The notes under the pieces: model-generated
The model's database searches: none
Told to the model about the DNA's origin: nothing
What the model saw: the letters and a program-made list of their open reading frames with translations, nothing else
Translations under genes and position numbers: made by a program
Part shown: positions 9,001 to 57,003 of the stretch, piece after piece
Layout of the letters: each line of letters starts with the position of its first letter
How positions within the stretch are numbered: the stretch's first letter is position 1
IMG/VR virus record: IMGVR_UViG_3300037346_000419
Coordinates: 1-64,000 of that record
Reading direction: 5' to 3' (one strand)
DNA length: 64,000 bases
Source: a virus

Positions 9001-11442
9001 TCTACAGGTAATGTTCCATTAGGAAGAATTATAAAAGATTTAAAAGCTAATAATCATCCTATTGTATCTACAGATTTCTTTAAAGATTTAGAAATTGAGT
9101 ATGATGTAACTACAGGTATTACAACTATAAAAAGTCCTTCTGTAGAAGAAACCATATTTGACTCTTCAAACAAGTATGATACTTTTTTAAGATTATTTCA
9201 AGATGACACTACAAACTTAGGAGAGTATAATGGTGAAGTATTAACACCTTTCAAGTTAGCTCAAGATTTAGTTTCTTATGCATATTTATCAGATGATAAA
9301 AATGGAGTGTTTGGTTTTAAAAACTTTATACCTGTAGAGTATCTTAAAGAAATAGGAACTACTAAAAAATATAGAGATTTATTAGATAACATAAAAAATC
9401 AATATGATACAGATGAATTAGTTAAAATAGTAGATAATTTTGTTACTCAATATTTTCAACATAATCCAAATAAAGCTTTTGTAATTGAAGCAAAAGAATT
9501 AACAGAATCTACAGAAGATAAAAAAATAATTCCTCAATTTGTATCAGTTAGAAATACTAAAAAAGCAGATGGCTTACATCAATGGGATTTACATAAATAC
9601 AACTACATTGCAAAAAAGTATGAGCAAATTAGTGTGTTAGGAGATTCAAAATCTACAAGAGAATATAACAAAAAAGTGTTTAGTAAAACTTCTTTAATAG
9701 CAAATAACAATGTTAAAAAAGTTACAAGAGAAGTTATAATGTTAAATGGTAATAAGTATATTCAAGTAAATGGTAAAAACACTTTAGTATCAAATATAGA
9801 TAAAAATCTAACTGAAATGGGTATGCAAGAATTTGTTAATTTAGTGAAAACTTCTAAACAAATTTCTGAAGCTAATAGTATTTTATTAGCAGAATACATG
9901 GAATATATTGATAAAGATACAAAAATAGTTTGGGAAGTTCCAAGTGAAAATAGAAATGCTGAGTATAATCATACAACAAATACTATTTCTATGCATCCAT
10001 CTATTTATTCAAATATATTAGCAAGTAATAATAATAATGCTGAAGAAGCTACTCAAACTTTGCATAATATTTTCTTAGAAGAAGTATTACATTCTCTTAC
10101 AGTTGGAAACTTAAAAGAACATATTGAAGTTGATGCTAATAATCAATTTTTAAAATATAAGACTGCTAATCCTCCTATATATGTAACAATGCTTGTAGAT
10201 ATGTTTAATCAAGCTAGAGAAGCTCTTCCTTATGATGAAAACAATGATTATGATACTTACTATTCAAAAAATATATTTGAGTTCATAGCAGGTATGTATA
10301 TAGCTCCTGATTATGTTGAAAAGCTAGAAAAAGCAAATAAAGGCTTCATAGAAAGATTTGCTAGGATGTTGAAAAATATGTTTACTCATTTGTGGAATAA
10401 GTCAGAAAGAGTTTTAGAAAAAAGTTATAAAGATTATTTTCATAGTGCAGTAAAAAGCTTAGTAACAAAAACAGATATGATTTCAGAGATTACACCAGAA
10501 AAAGAGCAAAAAGAAAAACTTAGTGTTTTAGATATAAAAAATGATGATGTAAAAGTTGATGAAGATATAAAAAGAAAAACTTTAATTCAACAAACTGAAC
10601 AACCTAAAAACATAGAAAATATTTATCCACAATTGGGAAATAAAACAGAGTCTGGTAATGTAATTCTTAAATCTGTATATCAACAAGAAGGTGTAACTTA
10701 TGCTAAATCTATTGGTGGTGTGTTTAGTATGAGAGTTAATAATTCTGAAAAACACTTCGGTAATCCTTTTAGTCCTGTACCTGCTGAAATAGCTAAAGGT
10801 CTAATAGCTGTTAAATCTACTAAAGAGGCAGTTGAGAAGTATATTGATTGGGTTTTAGATAAAGGCGGAAATAATTTAACTAAAGTTCAAATTACAACAA
10901 TAGCTAAAAATTTAATAGATAATAATTCTATAAAAGAAGTACTGTATACATTTAAAAACAGAATTGAATATAATGGAAAGCTAACTGGTTATTACTCTTC
11001 TTTAAAAAGTACTAAAGGTAATATTCCTAACTATTTATCAGATAATATTTATTTAACAAAACAAGATATACTTGATATAGAAAATGAATTAATAAATATA
11101 GGCGGAGAATCTGTTGTAGATACTGCTGTTAGTGGTTTTGATAATACCCAAGAACTAGACGATGATGCACAATATGGTAAATTGGGTGCTTTAGAAGAAC
11201 ATTATAAAAGAGCAGATTGGATTAGAGAACAACTTAAATCAGGAGCTTTAAAAGGTAAATCTATTGTTTATTATAAAGAGCTTCAAGAACCTTCTCACGC
11301 AACTGCTTTAGACTATTTAATTAATAAGTATGATTGGAATAAAGAAGCACAAAACAACTCTCAAAGTGAAAAAAACACTTTATTAACCAAAGAAATCACT
11401 CAAGAAGATATTGATAACTTACCAGAGACAGACTGTAAATAA
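1..11442 (+). CDS. Giant virion-packaged RNA polymerase polyprotein (crAss-like vRNAP), 5'-truncated by the window edge
   Basis: Frame 1 is open from base 1 (LKDIEPVY...PNSKVKEVVFH), so the true start is upstream of the window. Catalytic DxDxD motif GEDYDVDK at ~6930-6950, preceded by FRIPTSSHQS. TDAQGY motif at ~5473-5490. More than 3800 aa. Confidence 0.9.
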   Translation, partial: LKDIEPVYAPYSNEQIQAFIDSKIPNSKVKEVVFHDTDVKFDKFESKRGIYFNLSTDYGFSNAIYKIPAIINLINPIIEDMDSYGGENTNLKFPDNDGVIGTDPTKKFYGEYIVKNPSQITILNTPETIKEFKKFVGKQSNLTLEQSKNIDDLKSIEKKQPQVNVQDVLGARPLNKNIVVTDKQKQNTVAFVKELQKDLGFKPELKDVITHLIKTAGLEKTEDMYNMIVAKIATTGIDVSDSESVYSAFFGVTEEFMNDTDNFFTEEVIKEDNKKQETALQKRPVTLPNDVDFNPGEDRRLMDSSLRLAFNKQDAVRISDTQWEVKRNLKDSNEDHYVKNDFILDSEFLHSIEEESKQNPEVLRAVQYDDTDGPFKRVRENQTSVNLEINSSGEVKKISIPVNKGETIVTWGQAKEAAKKVLTEQEYTAWFNQYVPVAIVYQGKKSTSLVKISMMHDKHYFSEEANNLNESDPALLEQVRMAAIIEISEFRNRLAVNKNLNVRLSAREFGQIHKNPSTVSVNEANPQSQLAVLKDVVGDKLIFETSDKVEFDSSSILNLKPGIYTKVNAKGEVVPRKGVVVHINEIMVDENGNKKYMAFITSTNNPSNNENLPEQLHDHLSHAVVASIILNNKNNVELLKSLEEKYNLTLTQAQEIGKQIQADSNVNIEVNIGAYLGKFINLSTSIADLSENNLKKDGQKYKIGRGFIMDAGQGKFQFQIYGAEKTSDSKMAFTLGGVSQFPTTTLKYLESFLDKETGALSKNTFNYNLKDAASQKPMKLVGKDGTFNNQKSESYSSIMKNFYKTRILSHEITTIDGNKKWITDVQPILKPEIINANNEKVNLKISEKEITQDVLENNTDLEVVYKEMLEQGMSEKAALELIETLKATNENYVSNNSNKLGSRLQVTEKSKGVLKDYNTNKIEGLSELQEKEIVDFIKHNIPVAIEDINNITAKELRDRIVEKINSIIKEEIEKKESQIKILETLPSATVFLEQQNAVSEKLKAVDSQIDKMANSVLEEFGAIFNLDLAQDIAENQESFSKSSLENDLVLSFSKALLFSFYGFQKKTNFGTTVKNSFGLPTYHTANEVKTQLLDKTSDIPNSWPALMETLNNSYQMAYFGQANNKNITERIHLYKDLMDKLEAFPQNLKNEILSKMVTNKVSLIKILLSPGKQLQTDRKLETFSNGEPKYASYSSTIIDENSKRADIKLKEKIKKNFYEVFGVLDKGQISLNQEYMTNIISQLDTIIKSQDTNPDTIIDLLHKIGFSDIEKNSIKYLLNLQGIQVKNKTINIFSDTSGLLGLLRKEMQKTLEASKTEGFSLDKSNNPYEEINNVLKFLVSIEINLNRNLLGSSIYVGDKTVSTTMPTSEFFDTNKRLANPEEVEKLLSLPFQSRNFILKALLTDEVFRENFNKLSFPSLEALAVHKKDSFGDTSYDKISPTDSLLVALNLYSNTRFEELQNSNLSEDFPSLVFRIGMMPSLTIADKGRTLYQTIPLLNFTQKEANFENDTLSLSEDVLSFMSQQTFEAELANILEIQKNKTNYKNYNEASQMFYSINDFNIISIEINGKNTNIHEILQNLTDGYLSEDIKEQLIAKAKEKINNYVAHETDTKIKKDSFNVVNGEVVEAKIYNSESDKHLSNINTNYVSSKVGETNYDKLRVVMAEHAVNNLLNHFSTTQIYLGNSAFYSKVKVSKDIKKLNDIRYWKKNMEKTAALIQKRTAKLIAPGNKIADSDNINSQYSTEFTHIAIEDVESMSSFIKELIENQYGVLTTEQNLALEEISRLREILNSTDNKETIKSVLEKISNIKEEHFSEVADYFNITGTDAQGYVTWKGYLEMLVRQNLITEQESEDYTKKIEEGELSEKALDKLMKLNMQPVKPVYSASIIQGNQLVPVYIKMSEFPLFPQLTAGLKIDKIRKVMETIQDEKSNSKLHPVRASYQSANKIGSVDTQLTTKELYEFDGNLKNLKSLESSLSVLPMSGYRIQQATPSKEDKAFKKGKDSYITMGSQFFKVLLGNFVNKITDNIFPNVFSTEVLELSGVEVKENLSGEDLDKIYFKMYNMFSDLLSLQLETELGLTDVSFNDMSIGEQNEAIQKISKILTKEINERNYPKYLKNSIALIEENNRAFMEGTLMFDNNRHKFESLLQSVIANKIISHSLPGNAHISASSEGFEAIKDMDSLDEVTKSKIIWVTEIDGELKGTFVKDNNGKDQIHTSQVLLKAHWKYTDENGVLKYVDLTDEKYYTLNKETGRKMLNLDMIDKELLAMFSFRIPTSSHQSGALLEVVGFLPSDCQDLLIVPKEHTVQLGEDYDVDKRNIYKLNYYVDNEGNIKKLTKEYKDEVLNSEELLTWKEKHDILYSELEGYLNEVRLGKDSEDFKSYVKSINHNIKEMILTKTFILYDIFKNKKDNNSLEEFIDSVFSDKILQKELADTNSLIKDYKNEQEGVNEIKNLIRDLYTAFNYERSRIEGVSEKFKKNLEEKFQIKLLENALIDLYTSVYSTTNLDVQRKIFKPLTTEVVDTTANLIFDKVSKNNNNENFSMFSESYQRELLKNGADGQIAIGESSLAVVFEAQLQRNENTIKLTDLEYNQEGVLVDVPFAEVIGTLQNSNDIGKHLKTIDGKRNVSDIHGENQNNNTDAVNKGNMSKRNENTVTLRVYNFMAHLRFDLTPDRINTGIEVVYDKQDDNVSIGKEVKVTYNKNSVNAIISSQNEDGTYNAIINEQLSVPSLMISQPVIKDYVRLMTSYNSITAKYSAEKQQQIITDLSKIYGFKIVRKEDGTIDTAKFVDALTYNEESTNLTGSHMWDTLDKNQALKFPNSQATILQKFIRIENKALEMARVRKLINFSSSKMGISYFEVLDKIKELTRLGRNHLSQIENKNEITNHSKLIGEVSKEQLPGYKKIGELYWKPTTIEGTMLINALFATEKLLPAFFPYESGTIFTIISQITNNEQLQEPKLNLKDNYKIMTEFVNFINSDIGVFENDIENERERLMYENKSTGNVPLGRIIKDLKANNHPIVSTDFFKDLEIEYDVTTGITTIKSPSVEETIFDSSNKYDTFLRLFQDDTTNLGEYNGEVLTPFKLAQDLVSYAYLSDDKNGVFGFKNFIPVEYLKEIGTTKKYRDLLDNIKNQYDTDELVKIVDNFVTQYFQHNPNKAFVIEAKELTESTEDKKIIPQFVSVRNTKKADGLHQWDLHKYNYIAKKYEQISVLGDSKSTREYNKKVFSKTSLIANNNVKKVTREVIMLNGNKYIQVNGKNTLVSNIDKNLTEMGMQEFVNLVKTSKQISEANSILLAEYMEYIDKDTKIVWEVPSENRNAEYNHTTNTISMHPSIYSNILASNNNNAEEATQTLHNIFLEEVLHSLTVGNLKEHIEVDANNQFLKYKTANPPIYVTMLVDMFNQAREALPYDENNDYDTYYSKNIFEFIAGMYIAPDYVEKLEKANKGFIERFARMLKNMFTHLWNKSERVLEKSYKDYFHSAVKSLVTKTDMISEITPEKEQKEKLSVLDIKNDDVKVDEDIKRKTLIQQTEQPKNIENIYPQLGNKTESGNVILKSVYQQEGVTYAKSIGGVFSMRVNNSEKHFGNPFSPVPAEIAKGLIAVKSTKEAVEKYIDWVLDKGGNNLTKVQITTIAKNLIDNNSIKEVLYTFKNRIEYNGKLTGYYSSLKSTKGNIPNYLSDNIYLTKQDILDIENELINIGGESVVDTAVSGFDNTQELDDDAQYGKLGALEEHYKRADWIREQLKSGALKGKSIVYYKELQEPSHATALDYLINKYDWNKEAQNNSQSEKNTLLTKEITQEDIDNLPETDCK
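5405..5533 (+). repeat. 129-bp repeat, copy 1 (inside vRNAP)
   Basis: Base-by-base identical to the reverse complement of 22900-23028. Confidence 0.97.
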
Positions 11443-11449
11443 TTTGTAC

Positions 11450-11457
11450 TACCTTTG
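11450..11457 (+). promoter_or_regulatory. Bacteroidota-type -7 promoter box (TACCTTTG)
   Basis: Matches the TAnnTTTG consensus in the short gap before the 11470 ATG. Confidence 0.5.
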
Positions 11458-11469
11458 TAAAAGAATAAA

Positions 11470-14400
11470 ATGAGTTGTATCGTAAATAAAGTTAAAAAGC
11501 TTATAGTAGGAAAAGCTACTTCATATATTATAAAAGACAATGAAGTTATAATACCTGTAGAAGGTGAAAGAACTTTAAAAATGGCTTATAAAATAGCAGA
11601 AGGTAAAGTCTCTGCTATTAATGAAGCTTATAATGCTGAAAAATTTGGAGCAGTTGTTTCTATAAACAATACTTATAGTGATGGAGTTGGTATAAATATT
11701 CATCCTTCAAAAATTCTTGAATCTGCAAATGAAGTAAGAATAAAGAAAAAAAGCTTAGAAGAATTTAATAGAGACTTAAAGTATTTTAATGGAGATGCTG
11801 CTTTAAAAGAGCAAGAAGATAGAGATAATACATTTGGAGCAAGAGTAAAAAAAAACAAGTCAGAAACTGAAGAAAATCCTACTCCATTAGGTGATAATTA
11901 TGTTGAAGTTTTAAATTGGAAAATTAAAAAACTTGAAGCAAAAGAAAAAGAAATTCAAAAAGTAAAATTTGTATTATCAGTACCAAATGCAAATAAAAAA
12001 GAAAATTTAAAAAGGAAAAAAATATTAGAAAAAGAAGCTCAAAAATTAGAAAATCAAATTGAATATTTAAAACAAAATAAAAATGAACTCTTATATCATG
12101 CTGTGTTAGAAGATTTAGAAGAAATTAAACAAGCTATACAAAATGATTTAATTCATAATATTGATTCAGTTAGGCAAACTTTAGAATTTTATACAAAGTT
12201 TCAAAATAAATTAGATTCTCAAGATGAAGTAGTAAGAGATATTAAAGCTATGATTACAGATTTAATAGCTACAAATGAAGCTGTTAATTACAAAGAAACT
12301 ATAAAATTATTAGAAAATAATGATAATTTAATAAAGACTATTGAAAATTATAATGAAGAAAAAGGGACAGAAATATCTGTTCAAGATACTTTAGCAGCTT
12401 TATCTGATATTGATTTAGTAACTGCTCAAACTTTAGGTTTATCTTCTTCTCAAACTGGAGATACAGTTATACCTCAATTTGTTTTAACTGAGTTTATGAA
12501 GTTGGTTAATAGAAAGCAAAACAGTGTTATTGCTATGATTGACAAACTTAGAGAGTTTAATAATCTTAATCCAAATTTAAAAAACAAAAATCTAATTTTT
12601 GAAGATGATACTACAGGACAAAAACTAACTGGTTTATATAGTTCTAAATGGGATGCAGAGATTAGTAAAAGAAACAAACTAGAATATTCTTATAGAATTT
12701 CTACTAACCCTAAAGAAAAAGCTGCTGCATACAGAAGGGTAATTGAGTGGCATCAAAAAAACACTGATGTTATTAATTTCTTTAAGATAAAAGAAATTAG
12801 AGATTTATATTTTGGAGAAAGTGCTTATAATAAGTACTTTATATATGAAGACTCTGAAATGAGTAATTATGAAATGGAACTAAGAGAAAAACTGGGGCTA
12901 TTATATGAAGAAACATTAAATACCTTAAAAGAAAAATTAGCTAACTTTGAAGAAAGAAAATTAGATGTTGATAACACTTATTTTGCAAGAAATATAGCTC
13001 AGAATGACATATGGAGTTTCTTAGATAAATATTTAAATTCAGATTTTTCTCCAATATCATTTGAATATGAAGGCCAAGAAAGAAAAGTTTATTTTAATTC
13101 TTTTTATAATGTTCCTTTTACAGCAAAAGAAGAAACTGTTAATCCTATAGGTTATGATGATGTAAAAAATGAAGTAATATATAAGACAACAAAAACAAAT
13201 TTTTATTCAGACAACTTTAAAAGTTTGAAAAAAGACCCCAAGTTACTTGAACTTTGGAGTATATACAGAGAAATGGGTAATTATATTAACACTACTTATG
13301 CTTTACAAACAAATGGTAAAGTAACTTTACCTAAAGTAAAACAAGTGTTTGCTGACCATATTCAAAAGAATTTTGAAAGTATTAGAAAAGGTGGAATAAA
13401 AGATGGAATAAAAAACTTATTTTCTGAAAGTGTACAAGTTATGAAAAGCATGTATTATGAAAAAGGAGAATATAAACCTAATCCAGATGGAGAAGTAGTT
13501 TCAAATTATGGAGATAGTGTAAGTAAAGAAATACAAAACTTAAAAGAAACATACATAGCACAAGGTATGAGTTCTGAAGCCGCTTTGGAAAAAGCTAAAA
13601 AACAAACTTTAAACTTATATTCAGATGATGTAGATAGAAATTTTACAGCAGTATTATTAAATGCAGCTTTACATGATGCAAGAGAAGAAATGGCCCCAAA
13701 AGCTAAATTATTATTAGCCACCTACTCAAAAATAAAAGATGCAAATGGAAATGATAGAGTTAATGGTATACAAAGATTAACTGCTCAAATTAATAAAATC
13801 ATTTTAAATCAAAGTTTAGATGCAAGAGGTAAACCAGGAAAATTACATAAAGAAATAAAAGGTAAAATAAAAGGTGTAGGAATACCTAAGTATTTTTCTG
13901 AATATGAAAAATTATTACTAGAGCAATTTAAAGAACTTAAAAAAGGAGAATATAAAGGAGAATTTACTTTAAGTAATGATGAAATATATTTAAGTAGAGT
14001 TTATGATAAAAAAGCTAAAAAGTTTATTCACACTCTTGAAAAAGAAGGAGAACTAAAAGAAGTAGAAGAAAGTGAATTTAATGCAGTTTATGAAAAATAC
14101 ATAGATGATAAAATTGAATCTCTTGGTATATATGCAAATATAGCAGGTATGGTTACAGGAGCTTTAAAAACAAATATTATTAAGAGTATGGTGTTATCTC
14201 CTATTAGTGGTATATATAACAGAGTAGAGGGTGTTATATCTTTAATGATTATGGATATGACAGGAGAATATTGGACACCAGGTAATAATGATAAATCAAA
14301 AGATACTATGGCTTTTGCAAATATCATGAATATGTCTTCTAAAAAGTATAAAACCAAAAAGATGGGTAAAAGAAGAGAAACAATGGAGATATTTAAACAA

Positions 14401-16086
14401 GTAGTAAAAAAGTTAGGGGATTTTCAAGATAGAAAAGATGTATTGCAAGAAAGTGCAGGTAATCAAGATGTTGGAAATAACTTAATGAAATTTTTATATA
14501 GTTGGGCTATTCATGCTCCTGAATTTAAAAATCAAGGTCAAGCAATGTTAAATGTAATGCAAGATGAAACAATACTTGATAATAATGGAAAAGAGCATCA
14601 ATTTTTTAACGGTGATAGTAAAGAATTTGCAGCTTTTGAAATAGTAAATGGAATAGTAAAAATAAAAGACAATTTTAATAAAAGTTTTTCTTTTGAGAGT
14701 TCTCAAATGGAAAATTTAATGGTAAAAGCTTCTGATACAATTAGTCACGTTAATGGTAACTACAATCAGTATGATATAATGTTATTAAAAAATAAATTAG
14801 GTGGTAGAGCTTTAGCAGCTTTTAAAACTTGGTTGCCAGAACAAGCTTATGCTAGATTTGGTGGAATGACTAAAACTGATGAAAATATTACTTTAAATTT
14901 AGCTAATCAAAAAGAAAAAAGACAAGGTAGATTTGTAGAAGGTTATAGAGGAAGTAAAGCAGCAACTTTAGCTTATGGAGCTGGTGTAGTTGCAATTTCT
15001 TATGGAGTATTACCTGGAATTGTTGGAGCATCATTAGTATTAGGAACAAGTGTGGGTCTAGCTTATGTTTATAAAAAATATATAAAGAAACTAGTAAATG
15101 ATAAAAGTACAGTAGAAGATATTGCCAGTCTTTTACATATTGCAGAGTTTCTTAAAAGTACTTTAATTGACAGTTTAAATTTTCCTTCTCGAATAGCTTC
15201 TTCTATTCCTGGAGTAAAAAAATTAAGAATTAACACTATTGATAATAAGATTAAGTTTTTTAATTCTATGAATGGTTTAGTTGCCACTGAAGGAAATAAG
15301 AGTGTTTATAAGTCTTTAACTGAAGAAGAAGCAGCTTCTTTGAGAGCTATGTCAATGGAATTAGGAGCTATGCTATCTGTTTTATTAGTTAAAATAGGAC
15401 TCGGAGTATTAATGTATGATGATGATGATGAAGAAGCAATTAAACAATATAATTTTGTACAAAATCAATTAAGTAAAAGTATAAATACTTTAAATTTTTA
15501 CACTTCTCCTCAAGCTATGTTTAGTGATGTTCAAAGAATAGGGCTTTTAAAGTATTTAGAAAATATGGCAGATGTACCTCTAGGTATAGTAGATTTAGAT
15601 GGTGAAAGAGTTATGGTGGGTTTAGGAGGAATTACGCCTATACCTACTAATTTATTAAAAATAGATAAAAATGGGATGCATGTAATGAAAAATTCTCTTA
15701 AAAATGATTATCTAATAGACAATTTTGCAGGTAAATATGGTTCTTTAAATTGGACTCAAGATTATATAAAAGATGTAGCAACTGATAGTAAATTCTCAGA
15801 AGAAAAAGATTATAAAGAGGATAGGGCAGAGTTTAGAAAACAAATAAAAGATGAATTTAGAGACATTACAAGTAGTAAAGCAATTTTATCTTCAATAGCT
15901 GATGCTCATTCAGTTAATAAATATGGACAAAAAAGAAATGGTGTAGTAAAGTTCAAATCTAAAAGTGCCATTAAAAATAGTTTAAAAAGAAGTTTAATAA
16001 AAGATTTTATAGAGCTTGGAATGACAAATAAAGAAGCTAATGAAAAGATGAAAGAAATCTTAGATAAAACTGATGAAACATGGTAA
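11470..16086 (+). CDS. Large virion cargo/ejection protein next to vRNAP
   Basis: 1538 aa, coiled-coil rich, with hydrophobic C-terminal segments (AATLAYGAGVVAISYGVLPGIVGASLVLGTSVGLAYVY). Position matches crAss-like giant virion genes. Confidence 0.6.
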   Translation: MSCIVNKVKKLIVGKATSYIIKDNEVIIPVEGERTLKMAYKIAEGKVSAINEAYNAEKFGAVVSINNTYSDGVGINIHPSKILESANEVRIKKKSLEEFNRDLKYFNGDAALKEQEDRDNTFGARVKKNKSETEENPTPLGDNYVEVLNWKIKKLEAKEKEIQKVKFVLSVPNANKKENLKRKKILEKEAQKLENQIEYLKQNKNELLYHAVLEDLEEIKQAIQNDLIHNIDSVRQTLEFYTKFQNKLDSQDEVVRDIKAMITDLIATNEAVNYKETIKLLENNDNLIKTIENYNEEKGTEISVQDTLAALSDIDLVTAQTLGLSSSQTGDTVIPQFVLTEFMKLVNRKQNSVIAMIDKLREFNNLNPNLKNKNLIFEDDTTGQKLTGLYSSKWDAEISKRNKLEYSYRISTNPKEKAAAYRRVIEWHQKNTDVINFFKIKEIRDLYFGESAYNKYFIYEDSEMSNYEMELREKLGLLYEETLNTLKEKLANFEERKLDVDNTYFARNIAQNDIWSFLDKYLNSDFSPISFEYEGQERKVYFNSFYNVPFTAKEETVNPIGYDDVKNEVIYKTTKTNFYSDNFKSLKKDPKLLELWSIYREMGNYINTTYALQTNGKVTLPKVKQVFADHIQKNFESIRKGGIKDGIKNLFSESVQVMKSMYYEKGEYKPNPDGEVVSNYGDSVSKEIQNLKETYIAQGMSSEAALEKAKKQTLNLYSDDVDRNFTAVLLNAALHDAREEMAPKAKLLLATYSKIKDANGNDRVNGIQRLTAQINKIILNQSLDARGKPGKLHKEIKGKIKGVGIPKYFSEYEKLLLEQFKELKKGEYKGEFTLSNDEIYLSRVYDKKAKKFIHTLEKEGELKEVEESEFNAVYEKYIDDKIESLGIYANIAGMVTGALKTNIIKSMVLSPISGIYNRVEGVISLMIMDMTGEYWTPGNNDKSKDTMAFANIMNMSSKKYKTKKMGKRRETMEIFKQVVKKLGDFQDRKDVLQESAGNQDVGNNLMKFLYSWAIHAPEFKNQGQAMLNVMQDETILDNNGKEHQFFNGDSKEFAAFEIVNGIVKIKDNFNKSFSFESSQMENLMVKASDTISHVNGNYNQYDIMLLKNKLGGRALAAFKTWLPEQAYARFGGMTKTDENITLNLANQKEKRQGRFVEGYRGSKAATLAYGAGVVAISYGVLPGIVGASLVLGTSVGLAYVYKKYIKKLVNDKSTVEDIASLLHIAEFLKSTLIDSLNFPSRIASSIPGVKKLRINTIDNKIKFFNSMNGLVATEGNKSVYKSLTEEEAASLRAMSMELGAMLSVLLVKIGLGVLMYDDDDEEAIKQYNFVQNQLSKSINTLNFYTSPQAMFSDVQRIGLLKYLENMADVPLGIVDLDGERVMVGLGGITPIPTNLLKIDKNGMHVMKNSLKNDYLIDNFAGKYGSLNWTQDYIKDVATDSKFSEEKDYKEDRAEFRKQIKDEFRDITSSKAILSSIADAHSVNKYGQKRNGVVKFKSKSAIKNSLKRSLIKDFIELGMTNKEANEKMKEILDKTDETW

Positions 16087-16110
16087 GCAAAATTTTTTAT
16101 TGAACCATAT

Positions 16111-16145
16111 AAAAAGGCTAGTATTTCTACTAGCCTTATTTATTT
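16111..16145. terminator. Bidirectional intrinsic terminator between convergent modules
   Basis: AAGGCTAGTA-tttc-TACTAGCCTT perfect 10-bp stem, A-run on the left and T-rich on the right. Confidence 0.8.
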
Positions 16146-16509
16146 ACAAATCTAATTTTAGTTGATTTGTTTCATCTAAATAATTTATTGTAATATATGC
16201 TTTATTTTTCCAAGCTACAAATCCTAAATTTTCATTTTCAAATCTAGCATCTGACTCTTTTAAAATCATAACATTTTCTTTCAATATACTTGCTAATTGT
16301 TCTAATTTACTTTTATCTTTAGTGTAATTTATATCTCCATACCAAACTTTACCTTGAGAAGTTATAACATTTGCATTAAATATTATAATATCATCAGGAT
16401 ATTTTTCTTTGTATGCAGATTTAGAACCTAACAACATTGTACCATTGTGTCCTAGTGTAGAAATTAAAAGTTGTTTATGGTCTAATACTCTATTCTCCTG
16501 TACTTCCAT
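16144..16509 (-). CDS. Hypothetical phage protein
   Basis: 121-aa ORF overlapping the end of dut, last gene of the - strand block. Confidence 0.6.
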   Translation of the reverse strand: MEVQENRVLDHKQLLISTLGHNGTMLLGSKSAYKEKYPDDIIIFNANVITSQGKVWYGDINYTKDKSKLEQLASILKENVMILKESDARFENENLGFVAWKNKAYITINYLDETNQLKLDL

Positions 16510-17002
16510 ATCCTTTTTCTCCTCTTTCTGTATCTATTGTGTAATCTTCAGCTTGAATCTCTTCTATAGCTGGTCTTATTACTTCTTTAGGTACTAATTG
16601 TGCTATTCTTTCACCTTTAATAATAGTATTCAATTGTGAAGTAGTATTTGAAATAATAATTCCAATTTCTCCTTTATAATCAGGGTCTATTGTTCCTGGA
16701 GAATTTGTAACTATTAAACCTTTTTTTAATGAGAAACCACTACGAGGTCTTACCTGAAGTTCTATATTTTCTGGTATATCTGCATATAAGCCAGTTCCAA
16801 ATAAAATTCTCTCGTAACCTCTTATTTTTATGTAATTGTTTCTCTCAAAACTATGCTGAACTTTTTCTAATCTCTCTCCAGTGATTTCTTCATCACCTTT
16901 ATAGACTTTAAGAATTGTATTAGCTGTTATATCCATTCCAACAGCTTTCTCTGTTTCATATTGAGGGAGTTTAACTCCCTCATTTAATTTAAATTTTATC
17001 AT
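16490..17002 (-). CDS. dut: Trimeric dUTPase
   Basis: Motifs AVGMDI, RPRSG, NSPGTIDPDYKGEI, RIAQL and RGEKGYGSTG. Confidence 0.95.
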   Translation of the reverse strand: MIKFKLNEGVKLPQYETEKAVGMDITANTILKVYKGDEEITGERLEKVQHSFERNNYIKIRGYERILFGTGLYADIPENIELQVRPRSGFSLKKGLIVTNSPGTIDPDYKGEIGIIISNTTSQLNTIIKGERIAQLVPKEVIRPAIEEIQAEDYTIDTERGEKGYGSTGE

Positions 17003-17007
17003 TTATT

Positions 17008-19659
17008 TTAACCACATTTTGAATGCCCACACTCTTTACAAGTAGAACATCCTTCTTCAAAAACTACACTTCCTTTTGTTTTACAATTATCACATTCCAA
17101 AGTTGAAGTTTCTCCTTTTGGAATATATTTTTTTAGTACTCTAGCAAGAGATTTAGAAAAAGATGTAATATCTCCCTCTCCTTTATTCAATTGCTCTACA
17201 ATATATTTGTTATTAACTCCATGTCTTAAACTAATACTAGTTAATCTCAATAATAAAGCTTGTTCATTTGTTAAATTACAAGTAATATCATGAAATATAT
17301 CATTTTGTTTGAAAAAATAACTATTACTAGTTTTTTTATAAATGATACCAGGACCTGAAAATTTACCTTCTGATTCATCTAAGAAAACTTCATAAGGTTT
17401 ATTATTTAATAATCCTACAATCCATTTATAGACATGTCCTTGTGAGTGGCTTATAAATGCTTCTCCTTCTAATTCTCTAGGTCTTTTTATAGCATCATGT
17501 TCTTTAAAAGCAACTTCATCTTTAATATCAGTATTAACTAATACACCAGTTCTACAGCCATCTCTATAAACAGTTACACCTTTAAGTCCCATTTCCCAAG
17601 ATTTCATATAGATATTTGCTACTTCTTCTTTAGTTACGGTATTTGGTAGATTAATTGTGGAGCTTATTGCACTAGTAGTATATTTTTGTAAAATACTTTG
17701 CATTTTAACTCTTTTTGTCCAATCAATATCATTTGCTGTGCTACCATACCAAGGTGACACTTTGAAATATAGTTCTAAAGAATCCTTAGTTAAAGCTTTT
17801 ACATAAAGGTAAGCATTTTCCTTAGTTTTATTAGTACCTTTTAATAAAGGATTAACATCAAAAGCTACTTCATTTTGAATTTGTATAATCATCCAATCTT
17901 TAAATTTAGGATGTAAAACAGAATATTCTGTCCAAGAATCTTTATTTTGGTCAATAAAATCTATTCTAACTCCTTCTTCTCCTGGATTAACTTTCTTTCT
18001 CCTAGTATAAAAAGGCATAAATAAAGGCTCACAACCAGATGTTGTTTGAGTCATAATTGAAGTTGTTCCAGCAGGTGCAATTGTATTCCAATTTACATTT
18101 CTTCTACCATATTTCATCATTCTTAACTTTTGCTCTGGAAATTCTTCTATAAGCATTTGATAAAAATCATTTGCACCTTGAGTTTCTTTATCAGAAAAAA
18201 TATTGGTGAATTCTAAATTTTTATCCCAACCTTTAAAAGGTCCTCTAAGAATAGCTAAATCAATACTACAATCAAGTTCTGCCTTCATTTTTGTATGCAT
18301 TACAAGTTCAACAGTATCTAAAGCTACTTCTGAATCAAATTTTAAATTTAAAGCAGCTAACATATCTCCTAAAGCAGTTATACCACATCCAACTCTTCTA
18401 CCTGATTCTGCAATATCTTTAACATTTAACCATAGAGTTTTTTCAATAGCTTTTTCTTCTTCAGGTAAATTATCAGATTCTATTTTTAATAGAATTCTTT
18501 CAATATACTCAATTTCTAAATCAACTAAATTATCTCCTTGTCTCATCATTTCATAAGTGATTTTATATAATAAATCATAGTCAATTACAGCTTCTTCAGT
18601 AAATGGGTTTTGTACCATATTAAATAGATTTAATAAAATTAATCTACAAGTATCATAAACTGCCATTGGCTGTTCTCCACAAGCATTTGTTCCATCAATA
18701 AAATATTTAGAATACACAGAGGAAGGGTCGTAATTAATAACTCTATCCCAGAAAAATAGTCCTGGTTCTGCATTTTCCCAAGCATTTTGTACAATTGCAT
18801 CAAAATACTCTTTTGCTCTGATTTTTTTAGCATATATTTTAAAATCTAATGAAGAATCTTGTATTATTGTCAGTGTATTATACTCTAAATCCTCTCTTTG
18901 ACATTCTACAATTTCAGAATTTATATCACAAGGAAATCTAAGAATATAATCCTCATCATTTTTTACAGCTTCAAAAAATTTATCTCTTGTTTTTACAGAA
19001 ATATTAGCTCCTGTAATCATAGTTCTATCAATTTTTGAATTGATAAAATCTAAACTGTCAGGATGATTAATATCAATATCAAGAAGACAAGCTCCTCTTC
19101 TACCATCTTGAGCTACTTCTCTTGTTGAATTAGAATATCTTGACATAAATGATACTGGACCTGTTGAAGTACTTGAAGCATTTTTAACTTCAATTCCTTT
19201 TGGTCTAATATTAGAAATACCTAATCCATAACCACATCCTCTTTTAGCTGCTGATATCAGCATTGTGTCAGTGTACATTATACTAGAATAAGAATCTTTA
19301 GGTGGTGGTAATCTAAGGCAATTACTAAGGCTTCTATAACCTTCTTTATAACCTAAAGATGCCATAATTCTACCTTGTGGTACAATGTATTTAAAATCTT
19401 TAAACATATCAAAGATTTTTTCTTCTGTTAAAGGTATTCTTTGTAAAGCATAATCAGACATAATTTCTAAGTTAAAAGAAGCATCTTCATAATAATTTTT
19501 TTCTTTTTCAATATACTTAGATTCTACTTTAGCAAATTCTTTTGCTAGTCTTCTGTGCATGTCATTAGGTGTTATATCATTTTCTTGTGCATATTTATTA
19601 AGCCACACATCTGAAGCTAATTCATCATTATTAAAATATTCTAATAATTCTTTATTCAT
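17008..19659 (-). CDS. nrdJ: Class II (adenosylcobalamin-dependent) ribonucleotide reductase
   Basis: PQGRIM, SLSNC, TNACGEQ, TIAPAGT, C-terminal CxxC...CxxCGHSKCG. No beta-subunit gene nearby. Confidence 0.9.
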   Translation of the reverse strand: MNKELLEYFNNDELASDVWLNKYAQENDITPNDMHRRLAKEFAKVESKYIEKEKNYYEDASFNLEIMSDYALQRIPLTEEKIFDMFKDFKYIVPQGRIMASLGYKEGYRSLSNCLRLPPPKDSYSSIMYTDTMLISAAKRGCGYGLGISNIRPKGIEVKNASSTSTGPVSFMSRYSNSTREVAQDGRRGACLLDIDINHPDSLDFINSKIDRTMITGANISVKTRDKFFEAVKNDEDYILRFPCDINSEIVECQREDLEYNTLTIIQDSSLDFKIYAKKIRAKEYFDAIVQNAWENAEPGLFFWDRVINYDPSSVYSKYFIDGTNACGEQPMAVYDTCRLILLNLFNMVQNPFTEEAVIDYDLLYKITYEMMRQGDNLVDLEIEYIERILLKIESDNLPEEEKAIEKTLWLNVKDIAESGRRVGCGITALGDMLAALNLKFDSEVALDTVELVMHTKMKAELDCSIDLAILRGPFKGWDKNLEFTNIFSDKETQGANDFYQMLIEEFPEQKLRMMKYGRRNVNWNTIAPAGTTSIMTQTTSGCEPLFMPFYTRRKKVNPGEEGVRIDFIDQNKDSWTEYSVLHPKFKDWMIIQIQNEVAFDVNPLLKGTNKTKENAYLYVKALTKDSLELYFKVSPWYGSTANDIDWTKRVKMQSILQKYTTSAISSTINLPNTVTKEEVANIYMKSWEMGLKGVTVYRDGCRTGVLVNTDIKDEVAFKEHDAIKRPRELEGEAFISHSQGHVYKWIVGLLNNKPYEVFLDESEGKFSGPGIIYKKTSNSYFFKQNDIFHDITCNLTNEQALLLRLTSISLRHGVNNKYIVEQLNKGEGDITSFSKSLARVLKKYIPKGETSTLECDNCKTKGSVVFEEGCSTCKECGHSKCG

Positions 19660-19957
19660 GAGTCCCTAAAATTTCATCATAATTAATAAGACTATATGTA
19701 TGAATCTCTTTTTCAGAAATTTTATCATGTTTTATGATATTACTACCTGAATAAGAGCTTATAAAAATTTTGTCTCCTTCTTTTACACCATTTTGTGGAC
19801 ATTCATTTCCTAAATTTAAAACAGTCCTTGTAATTTCAAACAAGTCTTCATCTGTTTCTTTTACATTATCCAATAGAATAATGTCTTTCTTTTTTTTAAG
19901 TGCTATAGTTTTAATTAGCACATTTTTTCCTATCGCTTTCATTTTGTGAACTTGCAA
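19652..19957 (-). CDS. GroES/Cpn10-like co-chaperonin
   Basis: MKAIGKNVLIK...IILLD...VLNLG...VKEGDKI...INYDEILG fits the GroES pattern. TAACTTTG box just upstream. Confidence 0.7.
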   Translation of the reverse strand: MQVHKMKAIGKNVLIKTIALKKKKDIILLDNVKETDEDLFEITRTVLNLGNECPQNGVKEGDKIFISSYSGSNIIKHDKISEKEIHTYSLINYDEILGTHE

Positions 19958-19970
19958 AGTTAATATAACT

Positions 19971-21997
19971 TTACATATTTAAAAAATACAATTCATGTTT
20001 TGCTCTAGTTCTTGCAACATACTTTAAGTTTTGCTCTTGTTGTAGTTGCTCTTTACTTTTAGCAAATTTTGAAGGTATTAAATTCTCATTTAGTATATAA
20101 ACTACATCAGATTCCAAACCTTTTGATTTATGAATTGTACATAGCATTATACCATTTTCTTTTTCTTCAAATAGAGATTTTAATTTCTCTAATAAAACAC
20201 TAACTAAATCATAGTCTCCACAAAAATGCTTATATAATAAGGTAAAATTATTAAGATTCTCTTTAAAAACATAAAATTTAATTTTTCCTTCTTCAGAATA
20301 ATCTTTTTCTAATTCTTCTGTTCTATAAGTCATTTCAATAAAAGCTTGAGTAACTGTGTTTGTGGAATAAGCTTTTAAAAATCTAATTAAAGAATTTAAA
20401 ATGTCTTCTCCTTTTAAATATACATTTTTATCTTCAGCTAACAACTGAAAATAAAGCTCTATTAAAGGATTTGTATTCCTGCAAATTACCATTGCTCCAT
20501 TTTGTATCAATTTATAGTCAGTTATAGTCTTTACAATACCTTCTGAAGAATTAAAAGGTGTCATTACATCATAGACTTCATTTGCTTTCTTTATAATTGA
20601 GTCATCGCATCTGTAACAAATATCTAAAGGTAATTGTTTTACATTTGGTTTAGATAAAAATAAATCAAAAGAAGAGGTTGAAGCCCCAGAAAAACCATAA
20701 ATAGCTTGATTTTTATCTCCAACACAAATAAATCTTTTAACTGATTGTTCAATTAACTTATCTACAATTTTATGTTGACAAATATTCAAATCCTGACATT
20801 CCGTTTTTTTGTATAGTTTTAAAACATGATAAAGATTAATTATTATCATTATACTATACCTTATACTTTCATATAAGACTAGACTATATCTTAAAAATTT
20901 CTAATTTTACATTTTTAATATTTAGATTTTTTATTGTATGAGAATTTATCCAATTTCTTTTGTAAGTATTCTCCCTTTTAGAATCATATATATGCTGAGA
21001 TAATCTTGCTTTTAAACTTGTGCAAGTTACCCCTACATACCTTACTTCTAATGTTTCTGGATTTTTTAAAACATATATTAAAAACTCTCTTTGTTTAATA
21101 TTTTTTATTCTCTACATGTTAAATCTTGTGTTATGCAAAAACAGTAATTTTTCTCCCCGTTTCCAAATAAAATAATCAATTTTAAATGTACGTATTTCTA
21201 CTAGTCGTTGAACCTTACCCATTTTAAAAGGTCTTGGCTGCTGATTGCCTATTTGACATCTCAATTATTTTTAACATTCACACTTATCTTTTCAGATTAT
21301 GTTGTAGTTAATTGAGCTTTAAGGTATTCCAGCAATTAAAGGAGTTTTAAGTGAACTAAATTTAATCCACCATTAGATAATGAGGATATATTGGAATTTG
21401 AAGGCTTTTTACAACTGGTAAATAAATCATATCATTAAAATCTATTAAAACTAAGTTTGATTCATAACTAGCATTTCTTAATTCTAAAAATCTTTGCCAT
21501 AAAACTTTTAAATCAGGTGTGATAACTAAACTTTTATCCATAGTTATAAAACAATCTCTAATAGATTCTACATCATCAATTAAAAATAATCTAGATATAT
21601 CATTCATATCCATTAAATCATAACTCATTTTAAGTTTATCTTTCCAAACTAGCTTTTTAAATATTCTTTTATTTTGAAATTGTAATTTTTTAATTAAACT
21701 AAAATTTTTACCATTATCTATTTTTATATTCTTATAACTATTTCTTATTGCACTTAAACCTAAACTATGAATTGTCATAGCTTTTCCTTGAGTTAAATTT
21801 TTACTTTCTATTTTATTTTGAATTTCTTCTTTGATTGATTTATTAAAAGCTAAAAAAAGAGTTTTTTCTTGACAATGTTCTAATAACAGTAACAAAGTGG
21901 TAGTTTTACTACCACCTGCTACAGCATTTATTAAAATATTACAATCTTCATTATTCCAAACATCTAAAATGTTTTGTTGTTTTTCACTTAGAATCAT
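19971..21997 (-). CDS. UvrD/Rep-like SF1 helicase, split by a group I intron (exons 21365-21997 and 19971-20801, 487 aa spliced)
   Basis: Walker A-like AVAGGSKTTT. Splicing restores MVD|ECQD. Also VGDKNQAIYGF, YRC, TIHKSKGLE and YVARTRAK. Confidence 0.9.
20802..21364 (-). mobile_element. Group I self-splicing intron (563 nt) in the helicase gene
   Basis: Core elements AATTGCTGGAA, AATCAGCAG, GTTCAACGACTA and AAGATATAGTCT. Exon ends in U and intron ends in G. P1 pairing GGUGGAU/GUUCACU. Confidence 0.92.
20884..21117 (-). pseudogene. Truncated GIY-YIG homing endonuclease remnant inside the intron
   Basis: Frame reads ATG TAG then RIKNIKQREFLIYVLKNPETLEVRYVGVTCTSLKARLSQH...KRNWI...FKI*. GIY-YIG-type motifs present, with an immediate stop and no C-terminal part. 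Confidence 0.75.
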
Positions 21998-22113
21998 TTT
22001 TTAATATTTTTATAATTTCTTCAATTTCAAACTTTTCATCAGTACCTAACCTATCAGACCAACTTACTAAGTTTTCTAATCTTTCGATACCTATTTTTAC
22101 ATTTTTTGGCATA

Positions 22114-22362
22114 TTATAATATTTCTATAGTTAAATGAACCCATTCATCAATTATTTCAACTTCTGTTTTAACTTTATCTTTAAAAGTAACTATAACTTC
22201 ATGTTGAATCTGTCTAGCATCTTCTATATCAATTCTTGATGCTTTTTCTCTTCCTACATCTCCATTTTCTCTGGTTATATAAGTTATTGTGTTTTCATCT
22301 GCATCATCTAAATATAGATTAGTCATTAATGTATCAATGAACTTTTTTATATCTTCTTTCAT
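22114..22362 (-). CDS. Hypothetical protein
   Basis: 82-aa ORF in the co-directional gene run. Confidence 0.55.
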   Translation of the reverse strand: MKEDIKKFIDTLMTNLYLDDADENTITYITRENGDVGREKASRIDIEDARQIQHEVIVTFKDKVKTEVEIIDEWVHLTIEIL

Positions 22363-22598
22363 GGTCTTTTTTTAAGTGCTAAAGCAAATCCTCTTTTATA
22401 CCCATCTTTATAGGTATCTTCATCTAAAACAATCATTGGACACATTGGAACAATTCCTAAAAAAGTACAATTATATTTATCAAAACACCAACCTTCAGTA
22501 TAACCTTTTTTAAATCCTTCACAATAAGTTCCTGTTGTGTTATAAGCGTTTATATTTAACATATAAACGCTTAAACATATTAATATTAATTTTCGCAT
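22359..22598 (-). CDS. Small secreted Cys-containing protein
   Basis: N-terminal signal-like hydrophobic segment, 4 Cys in the mature part, GFxxGY repeats. Confidence 0.55.
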   Translation of the reverse strand: MRKLILICLSVYMLNINAYNTTGTYCEGFKKGYTEGWCFDKYNCTFLGIVPMCPMIVLDEDTYKDGYKRGFALALKKRP

Positions 22599-23530
22599 AA
22601 TTTTTTTATTTTAGCATATATTTCAGTCCAAGTTGGTAAACCCATAATACACTTATCATCAATATAAACATCTGCTGAAATTTTTCTACAATCTGCTCCA
22701 AACTTTTGAATAAGATGTGGCATATTACAATTTATATAATCATATTGTATGTCATTTTTATCTAAAAAAGCTATTGCAGCTCGTATTGTTGAAAATCTTT
22801 TCATATCATCTTTATAATTTTGAGTATTACAAGCTTTTACTGAAAGTATATCACCATTTAATGAAGAAATCCAATAATAATAATCTTCCTGATAAATTGA
22901 ATTTTGTCTTACAAGCATTTCTAAATAACCTTTCCAAGTTACATAACCTTGAGCATCAGTTCCTGTTATATTAAAGTAATCTGCAACTTCACTAAAGTGT
23001 TCTTCTTTTATATTACTTATTTTCTCTATAGCTTTTCCATCATATGTTCTAAATAAAAATTTATCTAATAACTTAATAGAATGACCATCATTATAAAACA
23101 TCATATGCTTTTGATTTTCAGCTTTACCAATATAAAAATTTCTTATATAATCACAATCCTTGATGATTTCACCAACAGTAAATACTACACCATCTGACAA
23201 TCTTTTTATAGAGTGAATATGATGGGAAAAATTTGAATTTAAATAATATTCTGCATTATATAGACCATCTCCTTTTCCATAAAAGCTCATTAATCCACTC
23301 ACAGGATTAAGTATATAATGACCATTATATCCATTTATTTCTATTATCTCATAATCTTTTTCAACAACTTTTTCCCAAAATTCTGGATTGTTTTCTACTA
23401 AATGAGAAGAAATTTCTGAAAACGTACCACTTCCATTAAAATTGTAAATATTTCTACCTTCTAAGAAATTTACTACAGTATTTAATTTAACACTTCCTGG
23501 ATATTTTTTAATTAATTTATATTTTTTCAT
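22586..23530 (-). CDS. Mosaic hypothetical protein carrying an in-frame vRNAP-derived segment and a HAD-like C-terminal fragment
   Basis: EKISNIKEEH...MLVRQN is identical to the vRNAP. C-terminal RKISADVYIDDK resembles HAD motifs III/IV. Confidence 0.6.
   Translation of the reverse strand: MKKYKLIKKYPGSVKLNTVVNFLEGRNIYNFNGSGTFSEISSHLVENNPEFWEKVVEKDYEIIEINGYNGHYILNPVSGLMSFYGKGDGLYNAEYYLNSNFSHHIHSIKRLSDGVVFTVGEIIKDCDYIRNFYIGKAENQKHMMFYNDGHSIKLLDKFLFRTYDGKAIEKISNIKEEHFSEVADYFNITGTDAQGYVTWKGYLEMLVRQNSIYQEDYYYWISSLNGDILSVKACNTQNYKDDMKRFSTIRAAIAFLDKNDIQYDYINCNMPHLIQKFGADCRKISADVYIDDKCIMGLPTWTEIYAKIKKLCEN
22900..23028 (-). repeat. 129-bp repeat, copy 2 (inverted)
   Basis: Exact reverse complement of 5405-5533, no mismatches. 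Confidence 0.97.
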
Positions 23531-42351: not shown

Positions 42352-42370
42352 CATGTTATTTTTTATTTTG

Positions 42371-42453
42371 TGGTCAAAGCGAGAATCGAACTCGCACTCC
42401 AAATTGGAACAAGATTTTAAGTCTTGCGTGTCTACCTATTCCACCATTTGACC
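42371..42453 (-). tRNA. tRNA-Leu(TAA)
   Basis: GGTCAAA/TTTGACC acceptor stem, CAAGA-CTTAAAA-TCTTG anticodon arm, long variable arm, GTTCGATTC T-loop, no encoded CCA. Confidence 0.93.

Positions 42454-55968: not shown

Positions 55969-57003
<1,035 letters not shown>

Follow-up and report, generated by a model that had tools for sequence, protein, structure and literature searches.

An exact inverted copy of a predicted virion RNA polymerase gene segment within a chimeric accessory gene of a crAss-like phage, probably a scar of recent illegitimate recombination

Results

An exact inverted repeat shared by two unrelated genes

A 129-nt stretch of a predicted virion RNA polymerase gene was found a second time, inverted, inside an unrelated accessory gene of the same phage. 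The best explanation (probability about 0.7) is that the second copy is the scar of a recent illegitimate recombination event, likely near-neutral, in a tolerant and already chimeric gene. The 81,326-bp IMG/VR virus record, of which the window analysed makes up the first 64 kb, is estimated to be 86% complete. When reverse-complemented, positions 22900-23028 (plus strand) are identical to 5405-5533 over all 129 nt, with 0 mismatches, confirming what the first-pass annotation had reported, and exactly two copies of the repeat are present in the whole record, in which the second-longest repeat measures 36 nt. BLAST extended the match to 134 nt at 99% with one mismatch (5405-5538 and 22895-23028), and a repeat search extended the arms to 145 nt at 96%. 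By estimate, at 26% G+C, about 1e-57 exact 129-mer matches would be expected by chance in the window. The zero mismatches support the earlier suggestion of a very recent event, or could alternatively reflect continuing gene conversion.

As the donor and recipient genes lie on opposite strands, the inverted copies are read as the same peptide, EKISNIKEEHFSEVADYFNITGTDAQGYVTWKGYLEMLVRQN (EKISNIK…LVRQN), of 42 residues, corresponding to residues 169-210 of the 314-aa recipient ORF and to residues 1803-1844 of the giant donor ORF as truncated by the window. Translations of both genes bore out the earlier observation that the copies are read in the same frame and that the insert comprises exactly 43 codons, placed between TYDGKA and IYQED. 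Exact-pattern scans of viral_contigs and metagenome_contigs for the repeat core, in which entries from the phage's own genome may be masked, returned zero other carriers, and among the proteins of 172-550 aa in a collection of 5.8 billion proteins the segment was found in none besides the product of the 314-aa ORF. Both copies encode Gly in T-D-A-Q-G-Y (5476-5478 and 22955-22957). Of the 103 giant-protein homologues that have the motif, 101 carry Glu at this position (TDAQEY), one Met and one Gln. Gly for Glu is therefore an unusual change at a near-invariant polymerase position.

The phage is crAss-like. The best annotated relatives of its giant protein are from crAss-like Flavobacterium phages (FpV4 group), with weaker matches to gut crAss-like phages. 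A salt-lake metagenome was the sole sequencing run found to contain its DNA, and a search for related loci carrying the polymerase region yielded zero relatives. In a blastn search against INPHARED phages a match was obtained from the HAD-like tail of the recipient gene (see below) alone, to phage phi14:2. Across the window, G+C content ranges from 22 to 31%; the giant ORF (1-11442, plus strand) is followed by an ORF of 1538 aa and then by a converging block of minus-strand genes. The single tRNA gene found in the window by ARAGORN encodes tRNA-Leu with anticodon TAA (42370-42453, minus strand). A long GAA-rich, low-complexity repeat coding for a Glu/Lys-rich stretch (55970-56260, plus strand; 15 overlapping copies of a 72-nt unit) sits within a 344-aa ORF of the structural block. 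Beyond the window the record holds an exact 36-nt direct repeat (record positions 74882-74917 and 75539-75574) and, near it, a second 36-nt pair with 94% identity (record positions 75095 and 75502); after the 129-nt repeat these rank next in length in the record.

The donor is a predicted gp66-type virion RNA polymerase gene

The giant ORF was recognised from the ORF list, its match to phrog_16227 and its homologues. Its 5' end is cut off by the contig start, leaving 3813 aa in the window, compared with 4000-5300 aa in homologues. The duplicated segment lies at approximately residues 2600-3300 in homologues, and hence roughly 850 or more upstream residues are missing from the giant ORF; some homologues of 2400-3200 aa begin just ~950-1150 residues ahead of the segment. 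With residues 1650-2000 as query, 121 proteins of 2400-5800 aa were retrieved. In an alignment of 29 homologues the segment was the best conserved stretch locally (DYFNITGTDAQEYTTWK.HLD.L.RQG) and was colinear, with homology carrying on at both flanks in these 29 and in 118 matched homologues, indicating that it is native to the giant gene. The donor copy (5405-5533, plus strand; residues 1803-1844 with partial codons) contains the motif DYFNITGTDAQ(G)YVTWK, and residues D176, A177, Q178, Y180 and T182 were invariant in two polymerase alignments (A3 and A4).

The giant ORF contains a single DxDxD motif, DYDVD, at residues 2312-2316 (6934-6948, plus strand); its context, GEDYDVDKR, is near-invariant in homologues as QLGEDYDIDKR (17-29 homologues). 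DYDVD is presumed to be the catalytic metal-binding motif of the polymerase. The motif described for crAss-like virion RNA polymerases (vRNAPs) is DFDxD, its fourth residue being Ile or Val (10.1101/2020.03.07.982082), and the giant ORF has Val there. An AlphaFold (AF2) model of residues 1651-2000 (pLDDT 76) matched phi14:2 gp66 (6VR4_A, residues 670-1104) with a Foldseek E-value of 1.5e-7 and a VIA Z-score of 17.9 (234 residues aligned, rmsd 8.6), the next row having a Z of 5.7; this structural similarity pertains to the 350-aa part that was modelled. When PDB sequences were searched by phmmer with the giant ORF as query, zero matches were obtained, the likeness to gp66 being found by fold alone. 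The giant protein also has a weak match to the crAss002 'putative RNAP catalytic subunit', and phrog_16227 carries, as annotation alone, the label 'virion structural protein'. Together, homologue alignments, the DYDVD motif and the gp66 fold match bear out the first-pass description of the repeat as a conserved vRNAP segment, and the donor is predicted to be a crAss-like virion RNA polymerase of the gp66 type.

The Connector between the two barrel domains of gp66 spans residues 1095-1238 (10.1101/2020.03.07.982082), which places the segment within the first barrel or immediately ahead of it, the catalytic motif following ~470 residues downstream. The two phages resemble each other in the fold of gp66 (PDB 6VR4) residues 670-1104 around the donor segment, in having a DxDxD-type motif, with Val fourth in the giant ORF, and in gene order, namely a large plus-strand gene, a second large gene and a converging block. 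They differ in polymerase length, the giant ORF (at least 3813 aa) being about twice as long as gp66 (2180 aa).

The recipient is a patchwork gene interrupted within a conserved motif

The recipient ORF, P0001 (22586-23530, minus strand; 314 aa), lies in a nucleotide-metabolism and replication block together with genes for a dUTPase, RNR, a GroES-like protein, a split UvrD helicase, a dNMP kinase and an exonuclease. The helicase gene is represented by two minus-strand ORFs (19971-20849 and 21362-21997) that are consecutive parts of UvrD-type phrog_1967 (positions 371-668 and 151-370, respectively), with ~510 nt between the halves. P0001 is a singleton protein; its closest relative shares 53% identity with it, over the N-terminal 40% alone. 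The conserved N-terminal part (residues 1-167(168); 23029-23530, minus strand) belongs to the phage protein family phrog_11079 (E 3e-26), a string of small SH3-like beta modules, and was modelled by AF2 with a pLDDT of about 90. It has the family pattern MKKYKLIKKYPGS…PEFWE..EKDYEI…IHSIKRLSDG.VFTVG and retains all invariant and near-invariant family columns (alignments A1 and A2). As to the function of this family, P0001 had no Pfam match, fold searches returned weak SH3-like matches and uncharacterised viral proteins, and all Atlas matches scored below 0.9.

The inverted copy (22900-23028, minus strand; residues 168/169-210/211) splits the family motif 'TEDGvdIfeGD'. The polymerase segment is absent from ~200 homologues of the recipient family, including alignments of 18 and 104 homologues; this comparison, proposed in the first-pass annotation, upheld its view of an insert within an unrelated gene. 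A family HMM built from 103 homologues aligned to P0001 in two pieces (140.8 and 10.7 bits) when the insert was present, and without a break (160.8 bits, ~20 bits higher) when it was deleted, the family sequence FtTeDgv.dIfegdkvwv pairing with FRTYDGKa|SIYQEDYYYWI across the restored junction (vertical bar). The unbroken profile after removal of the insert indicates that a conserved motif is truly interrupted. Past the insert the family sequence continues at residues 211-248 (22787-22899, minus strand; …IYQEDYYYWISS…KRFST), HMM positions 184-235 aligning to residues 211-260, and tblastn searches with longer family members extended this part as far as 22742-22775. The C-terminus typical of the family (…NKPCLSIND…LK.LVK.KL) was not found in P0001, the HMM alignment ending at position 235 of 275.

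In place of the family C-terminus, residues 249-312 (22595-22786, minus strand) form a HAD-like tail of the phrog_1238, phi14:2 g060 type. This C-terminus, which had not been described in the first-pass annotation, is a second and older graft, a piece of a small HAD-like hydrolase comprising its C-terminal ~64 residues. The tail matched phrog_1238 (E 5e-11) and phi14:2 g060 (43% identity, E 7e-22), a protein labelled 'phosphoheptose isomerase'. An exhaustive search gave 475 relatives, most of whose alignments begin at query position ~37-44, and a HAD HMM covered the tail at positions 76-139 of 157 (97-101 bits). The DFDGT nucleophile (motif I) and TCR (motif II) are both missing from the tail, whereas in g060 DFDGT occupies residues 14-18 and NTCRS residues 51-55, and every long relative retains (A/S)(V/I)DFD(G/N)TI; lacking both motifs, the tail cannot work as a HAD enzyme. 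The N-family domain was present in 0 of 149 HAD-like representatives, and a g060-like gene lay within 3 kb of an N-family gene in 0 of 80 viral loci; on these comparisons the fusion looks like a one-off.

Two other accounts of the C-terminus were considered. A fusion by deletion between adjacent genes was unsupported, the two genes lying within 3 kb of each other in 0 of the 80 loci and phi14:2 g061, beside g060, being unrelated to the N-family. A layout of N-domain, polymerase filler and HAD sequence from residue 214 onwards, suggested by the BLAST match to g060 starting at 214, was rejected because the exhaustive search and the HAD profile start at ~249 and the N-family profile covers 211-260. 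P0001 is thus a patchwork gene that has withstood two or more illegitimate joins.

Reading frame, fold and junctions of the insert

The native frame of the 129 nt is the only open one, the other five frames holding one to seven stops each, so that any insert keeping the recipient open must read the polymerase peptide. The first-pass annotation had noted the shared frame; with five of six frames closed, the identical peptide is an effect of survivorship and no sign of design. A random insert would stay open in an estimated ~1 in 18 cases (1/3 for length multiplied by 1/6 for frame and orientation), odds that imply either luck or selection acting on the part of the ORF that follows the insert, in which case the ORF would not be junk. 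Given these odds, a function for the new peptide is possible.

In the polymerase model the segment begins with the final ten residues of helix 145-162 and continues through a short helix, the ITGTDAQ loop and strand 178-182 to helix 183-192. The N-terminal end of the segment falls within a helix, and the strand depends on partners located beyond the segment. In the model of P0001 the insert has a pLDDT of 40-53, against 67-93 for its flanks, and the pasted peptide is probably a disordered or loosely folded loop with no autonomous fold. The cut helix, the poor model and the finding of no other carrier protein favour an accident over a transferred module.

No target-site duplication or direct repeat was found between the flanks GATAAATTG and TAGCTTTTCC, and no homology at the 23028/23029 junction. 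Junction homology is confined to a 4-nt AATT, located one base beyond the 22899/22900 junction. Insertion of a transposon or homing element does not fit these observations: there are no target-site duplication, terminal repeats or mobility gene, and the insert is pure polymerase coding sequence.

The second copy is supported by a separate assembly

The record was assembled from the metagenome of a single sample, and the second copy might in principle be an assembly or library artefact that is absent from the phage DNA, an alternative raised in the first-pass annotation as an assembly chimera. The junctions were examined in the Logan k=31 contigs of the single run, a separate assembly that is independent of the assembler and shares the library; the run is the sole one with the DNA and is probably the source of the IMG/VR record, so that the comparison would share any library artefact. 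The Logan contigs comprised one covering 4800-5434, a 17,426-bp contig covering 5504-22929, a unitig of the 129-nt repeat and a contig covering 22999-23700. At all four junctions the flanking contigs reach from unique sequence into an arm by exactly 30 nt, and 31-mers spanning each junction therefore exist in the reads; the contig breaks show the pattern expected of a true repeat longer than k. The three flanking contigs had equal depths of 14.0-14.5 and the repeat unitig was deeper, at 39.1 (2.75x), where two copies predict ~28.5. This excess, ~2-2.5 standard deviations by rough estimate, may be noise or hint at a third copy or context. No contig joining 22899 directly to 23029 was present among the Logan k=31 contigs of this run, meaning that an insert-free allele was not assembled, and the insert appears to be fixed in the sampled population. 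In-frame joins at both ends within one gene would also not be expected of an artefact. With all four junctions contained in the k=31 contigs, an assembly chimera is very unlikely, and an artefact of any kind is highly improbable.

Discussion

Would the repeat act as an inversion switch?

The first-pass annotation had predicted that recombination between the arms would invert ~17.4 kb and produce two in-frame hybrids, one with the catalytic half of the polymerase behind the N-terminus of P0001, and flipping 5405-23028 in silico reproduced this. Hybrid 1 joins residues 1-1844 of the giant ORF to residues 211-314 of P0001 and is open over 1948 aa within the window; hybrid 2 joins residues 1-210 of P0001 to residues 1845-3813 of the giant ORF, is open over 2179 aa and carries DYDVD. 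An inversion polymorphism, in which the arms flip the 17.4 kb in part of the population and thereby switch between two gene arrangements, would be compatible with these open hybrids and with the k=31 graph, which fits either orientation. The phage also encodes an exonuclease, making recombination on 129 bp plausible, and homologous recombination between the arms may occur as a by-product. However, it is in the recorded orientation that both genes are colinear with their homologues, and the inversion break falls within the region resembling gp66 670-1104, stripping the catalytic half of the parts that align to gp66 670-~850 and of a confident strand (model residues 94-100). A break inside the polymerase body, in or next to the first barrel, makes it unlikely that the hybrid would be active.

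Site-specific recombination is likewise poorly matched to the gene content. No match to resolvase/invertase (PF00239) or tyrosine recombinase (PF00589) was found in the 81-kb record (86% complete), with positive controls, nor to reverse transcriptase (PF00078) in the same record, and the swapped parts belong to unrelated genes where a programmed invertible segment would have an encoded recombinase and exchange versions of one protein. The G segment of phage Mu (Gin) and the C segment of P1 (Cin) resemble the present arrangement in having inverted repeats within coding sequence and in that a flip would yield in-frame hybrids. They differ in that the record described here has no invertase gene, its arms are 129 nt of ordinary coding sequence rather than short crossover sites, the segment spans 17.4 kb with half an essential enzyme and six or more genes, and the partners are unrelated proteins. 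The earlier idea of a working switch is thus unsupported, and an inversion polymorphism is an unlikely account of the repeat; should isomers of the 17.4 kb arise, they would probably be defective dead ends.

Would the grafted peptide be functional?

A further reading is that the 42-residue peptide has been kept as a mimic that binds a polymerase partner, or as a decoy for a host factor, with gene conversion keeping the copies identical. It would agree with the choice of segment, the most conserved of its polymerase neighbourhood, with an ORF left open despite the ~1-in-18 odds, with an insert at full depth for which an insert-free allele was not seen, and with the unusual Gly shared by both copies. 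The event is unique, however, no protein of similar size and none of the ~200 family members carrying the segment, and the piece is no folding unit, its boundary cutting a helix and its model being of low confidence. Identity at the DNA level that includes synonymous sites also fits recency better than long-term selection on the peptide. We regard a functional graft as improbable, to about the same degree as the inversion polymorphism, and consider it somewhat less probable again that the insert is at present active in either way, with arms that flip the 17.4 kb usefully or a peptide that serves as mimic or decoy of a polymerase surface, and with the excess depth of the repeat unitig perhaps reflecting extra copies or forms.

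Origin of the insert by illegitimate recombination

A scar of recent illegitimate recombination accounts for the repeat best. From the observed copy, donor, recipient, junctions, frames, absence of recombinase genes from the record and chimeric anatomy we infer the copying mechanism, recency and near-neutrality as follows. The 129 nt would have been copied from the phage's own polymerase gene, from the conserved stretch in or next to the first barrel domain, and placed in inverted orientation 17.4 kb away in the opposite-strand accessory gene. The route may have been illegitimate recombination, either non-homologous or guided by microhomology, or template switching during replication or break repair. 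The insert would have survived because its length is a multiple of three and its sole stop-free frame keeps the recipient ORF open. The recipient is seen as a modular gene with a conserved N-terminal domain and a variable tail, having already lost its own C-terminus to the HAD-like fragment, and the presence of this second C-terminal graft shows that the gene tolerates such events. Against this origin, a 129-nt inverted repeat able to break an essential gene should be costly, yet the insert looks fixed; the ~1-in-18 odds, the alternative of gene conversion and the excess depth of the repeat unitig also weigh against it. The phage being known from a single sample, no insert-free relative is available by which the event could be dated.

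According to the model of Hendrix and Hatfull, mosaicism of tailed phages arises by illegitimate recombination followed by selection. The present case agrees with it in having junctions with little or no homology and survival through intact reading frames, and in a recipient that is a variable accessory gene, here already with a HAD graft. It differs in that the piece came from an essential polymerase gene of the phage itself instead of from another phage, measures just 129 nt, is no domain and retains 100% identity to the donor sequence, the event being seen nearly in the act. Templated 'filler' insertions at repaired breaks and microhomology template switching (MMBIR/SDSA-type) are also comparable, since a short stretch has its ectopic template elsewhere in the genome and lies in inverted orientation, with no target-site duplication and at most 4 nt of microhomology at one end. 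The source of a break is putative in the present case, unlike in those systems; the split UvrD helicase gene lies 1.5 kb away, a link that is speculative, and a nuclease cut as the start of the event is likewise speculation. Diversity-generating retroelements likewise have two copies of ~100-150 nt, one of which lies in a target gene. They differ in that the copies described here are inverted, have 0 differences in 129 nt, and so no adenine-specific ones, and do not lie at the 3' end of a lectin-fold gene; together with the lack of a PF00078 match in the record, these features do not fit such an element.

Implications for gene mosaicism in crAss-like phages

The insert is a further example of a type of event already known and reveals no novel mechanism or system. 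Its value is as a clean and datable snapshot of phage gene mosaicism, in which the transferred piece retains 100% identity to the sequence it came from, the donor, recipient, junctions and selective filter (one open frame in six) can be read directly, and an older graft adjoins the new one. Were the flip to prove true, the phage would exist in two genome forms, one of them expressing the 2179-aa C-terminal half of the polymerase from the promoter of a replication-block gene. In either case, a recombination-prone inverted repeat across an essential gene would provide a natural test of the tolerance of ectopic recombination in a crAss-like phage.
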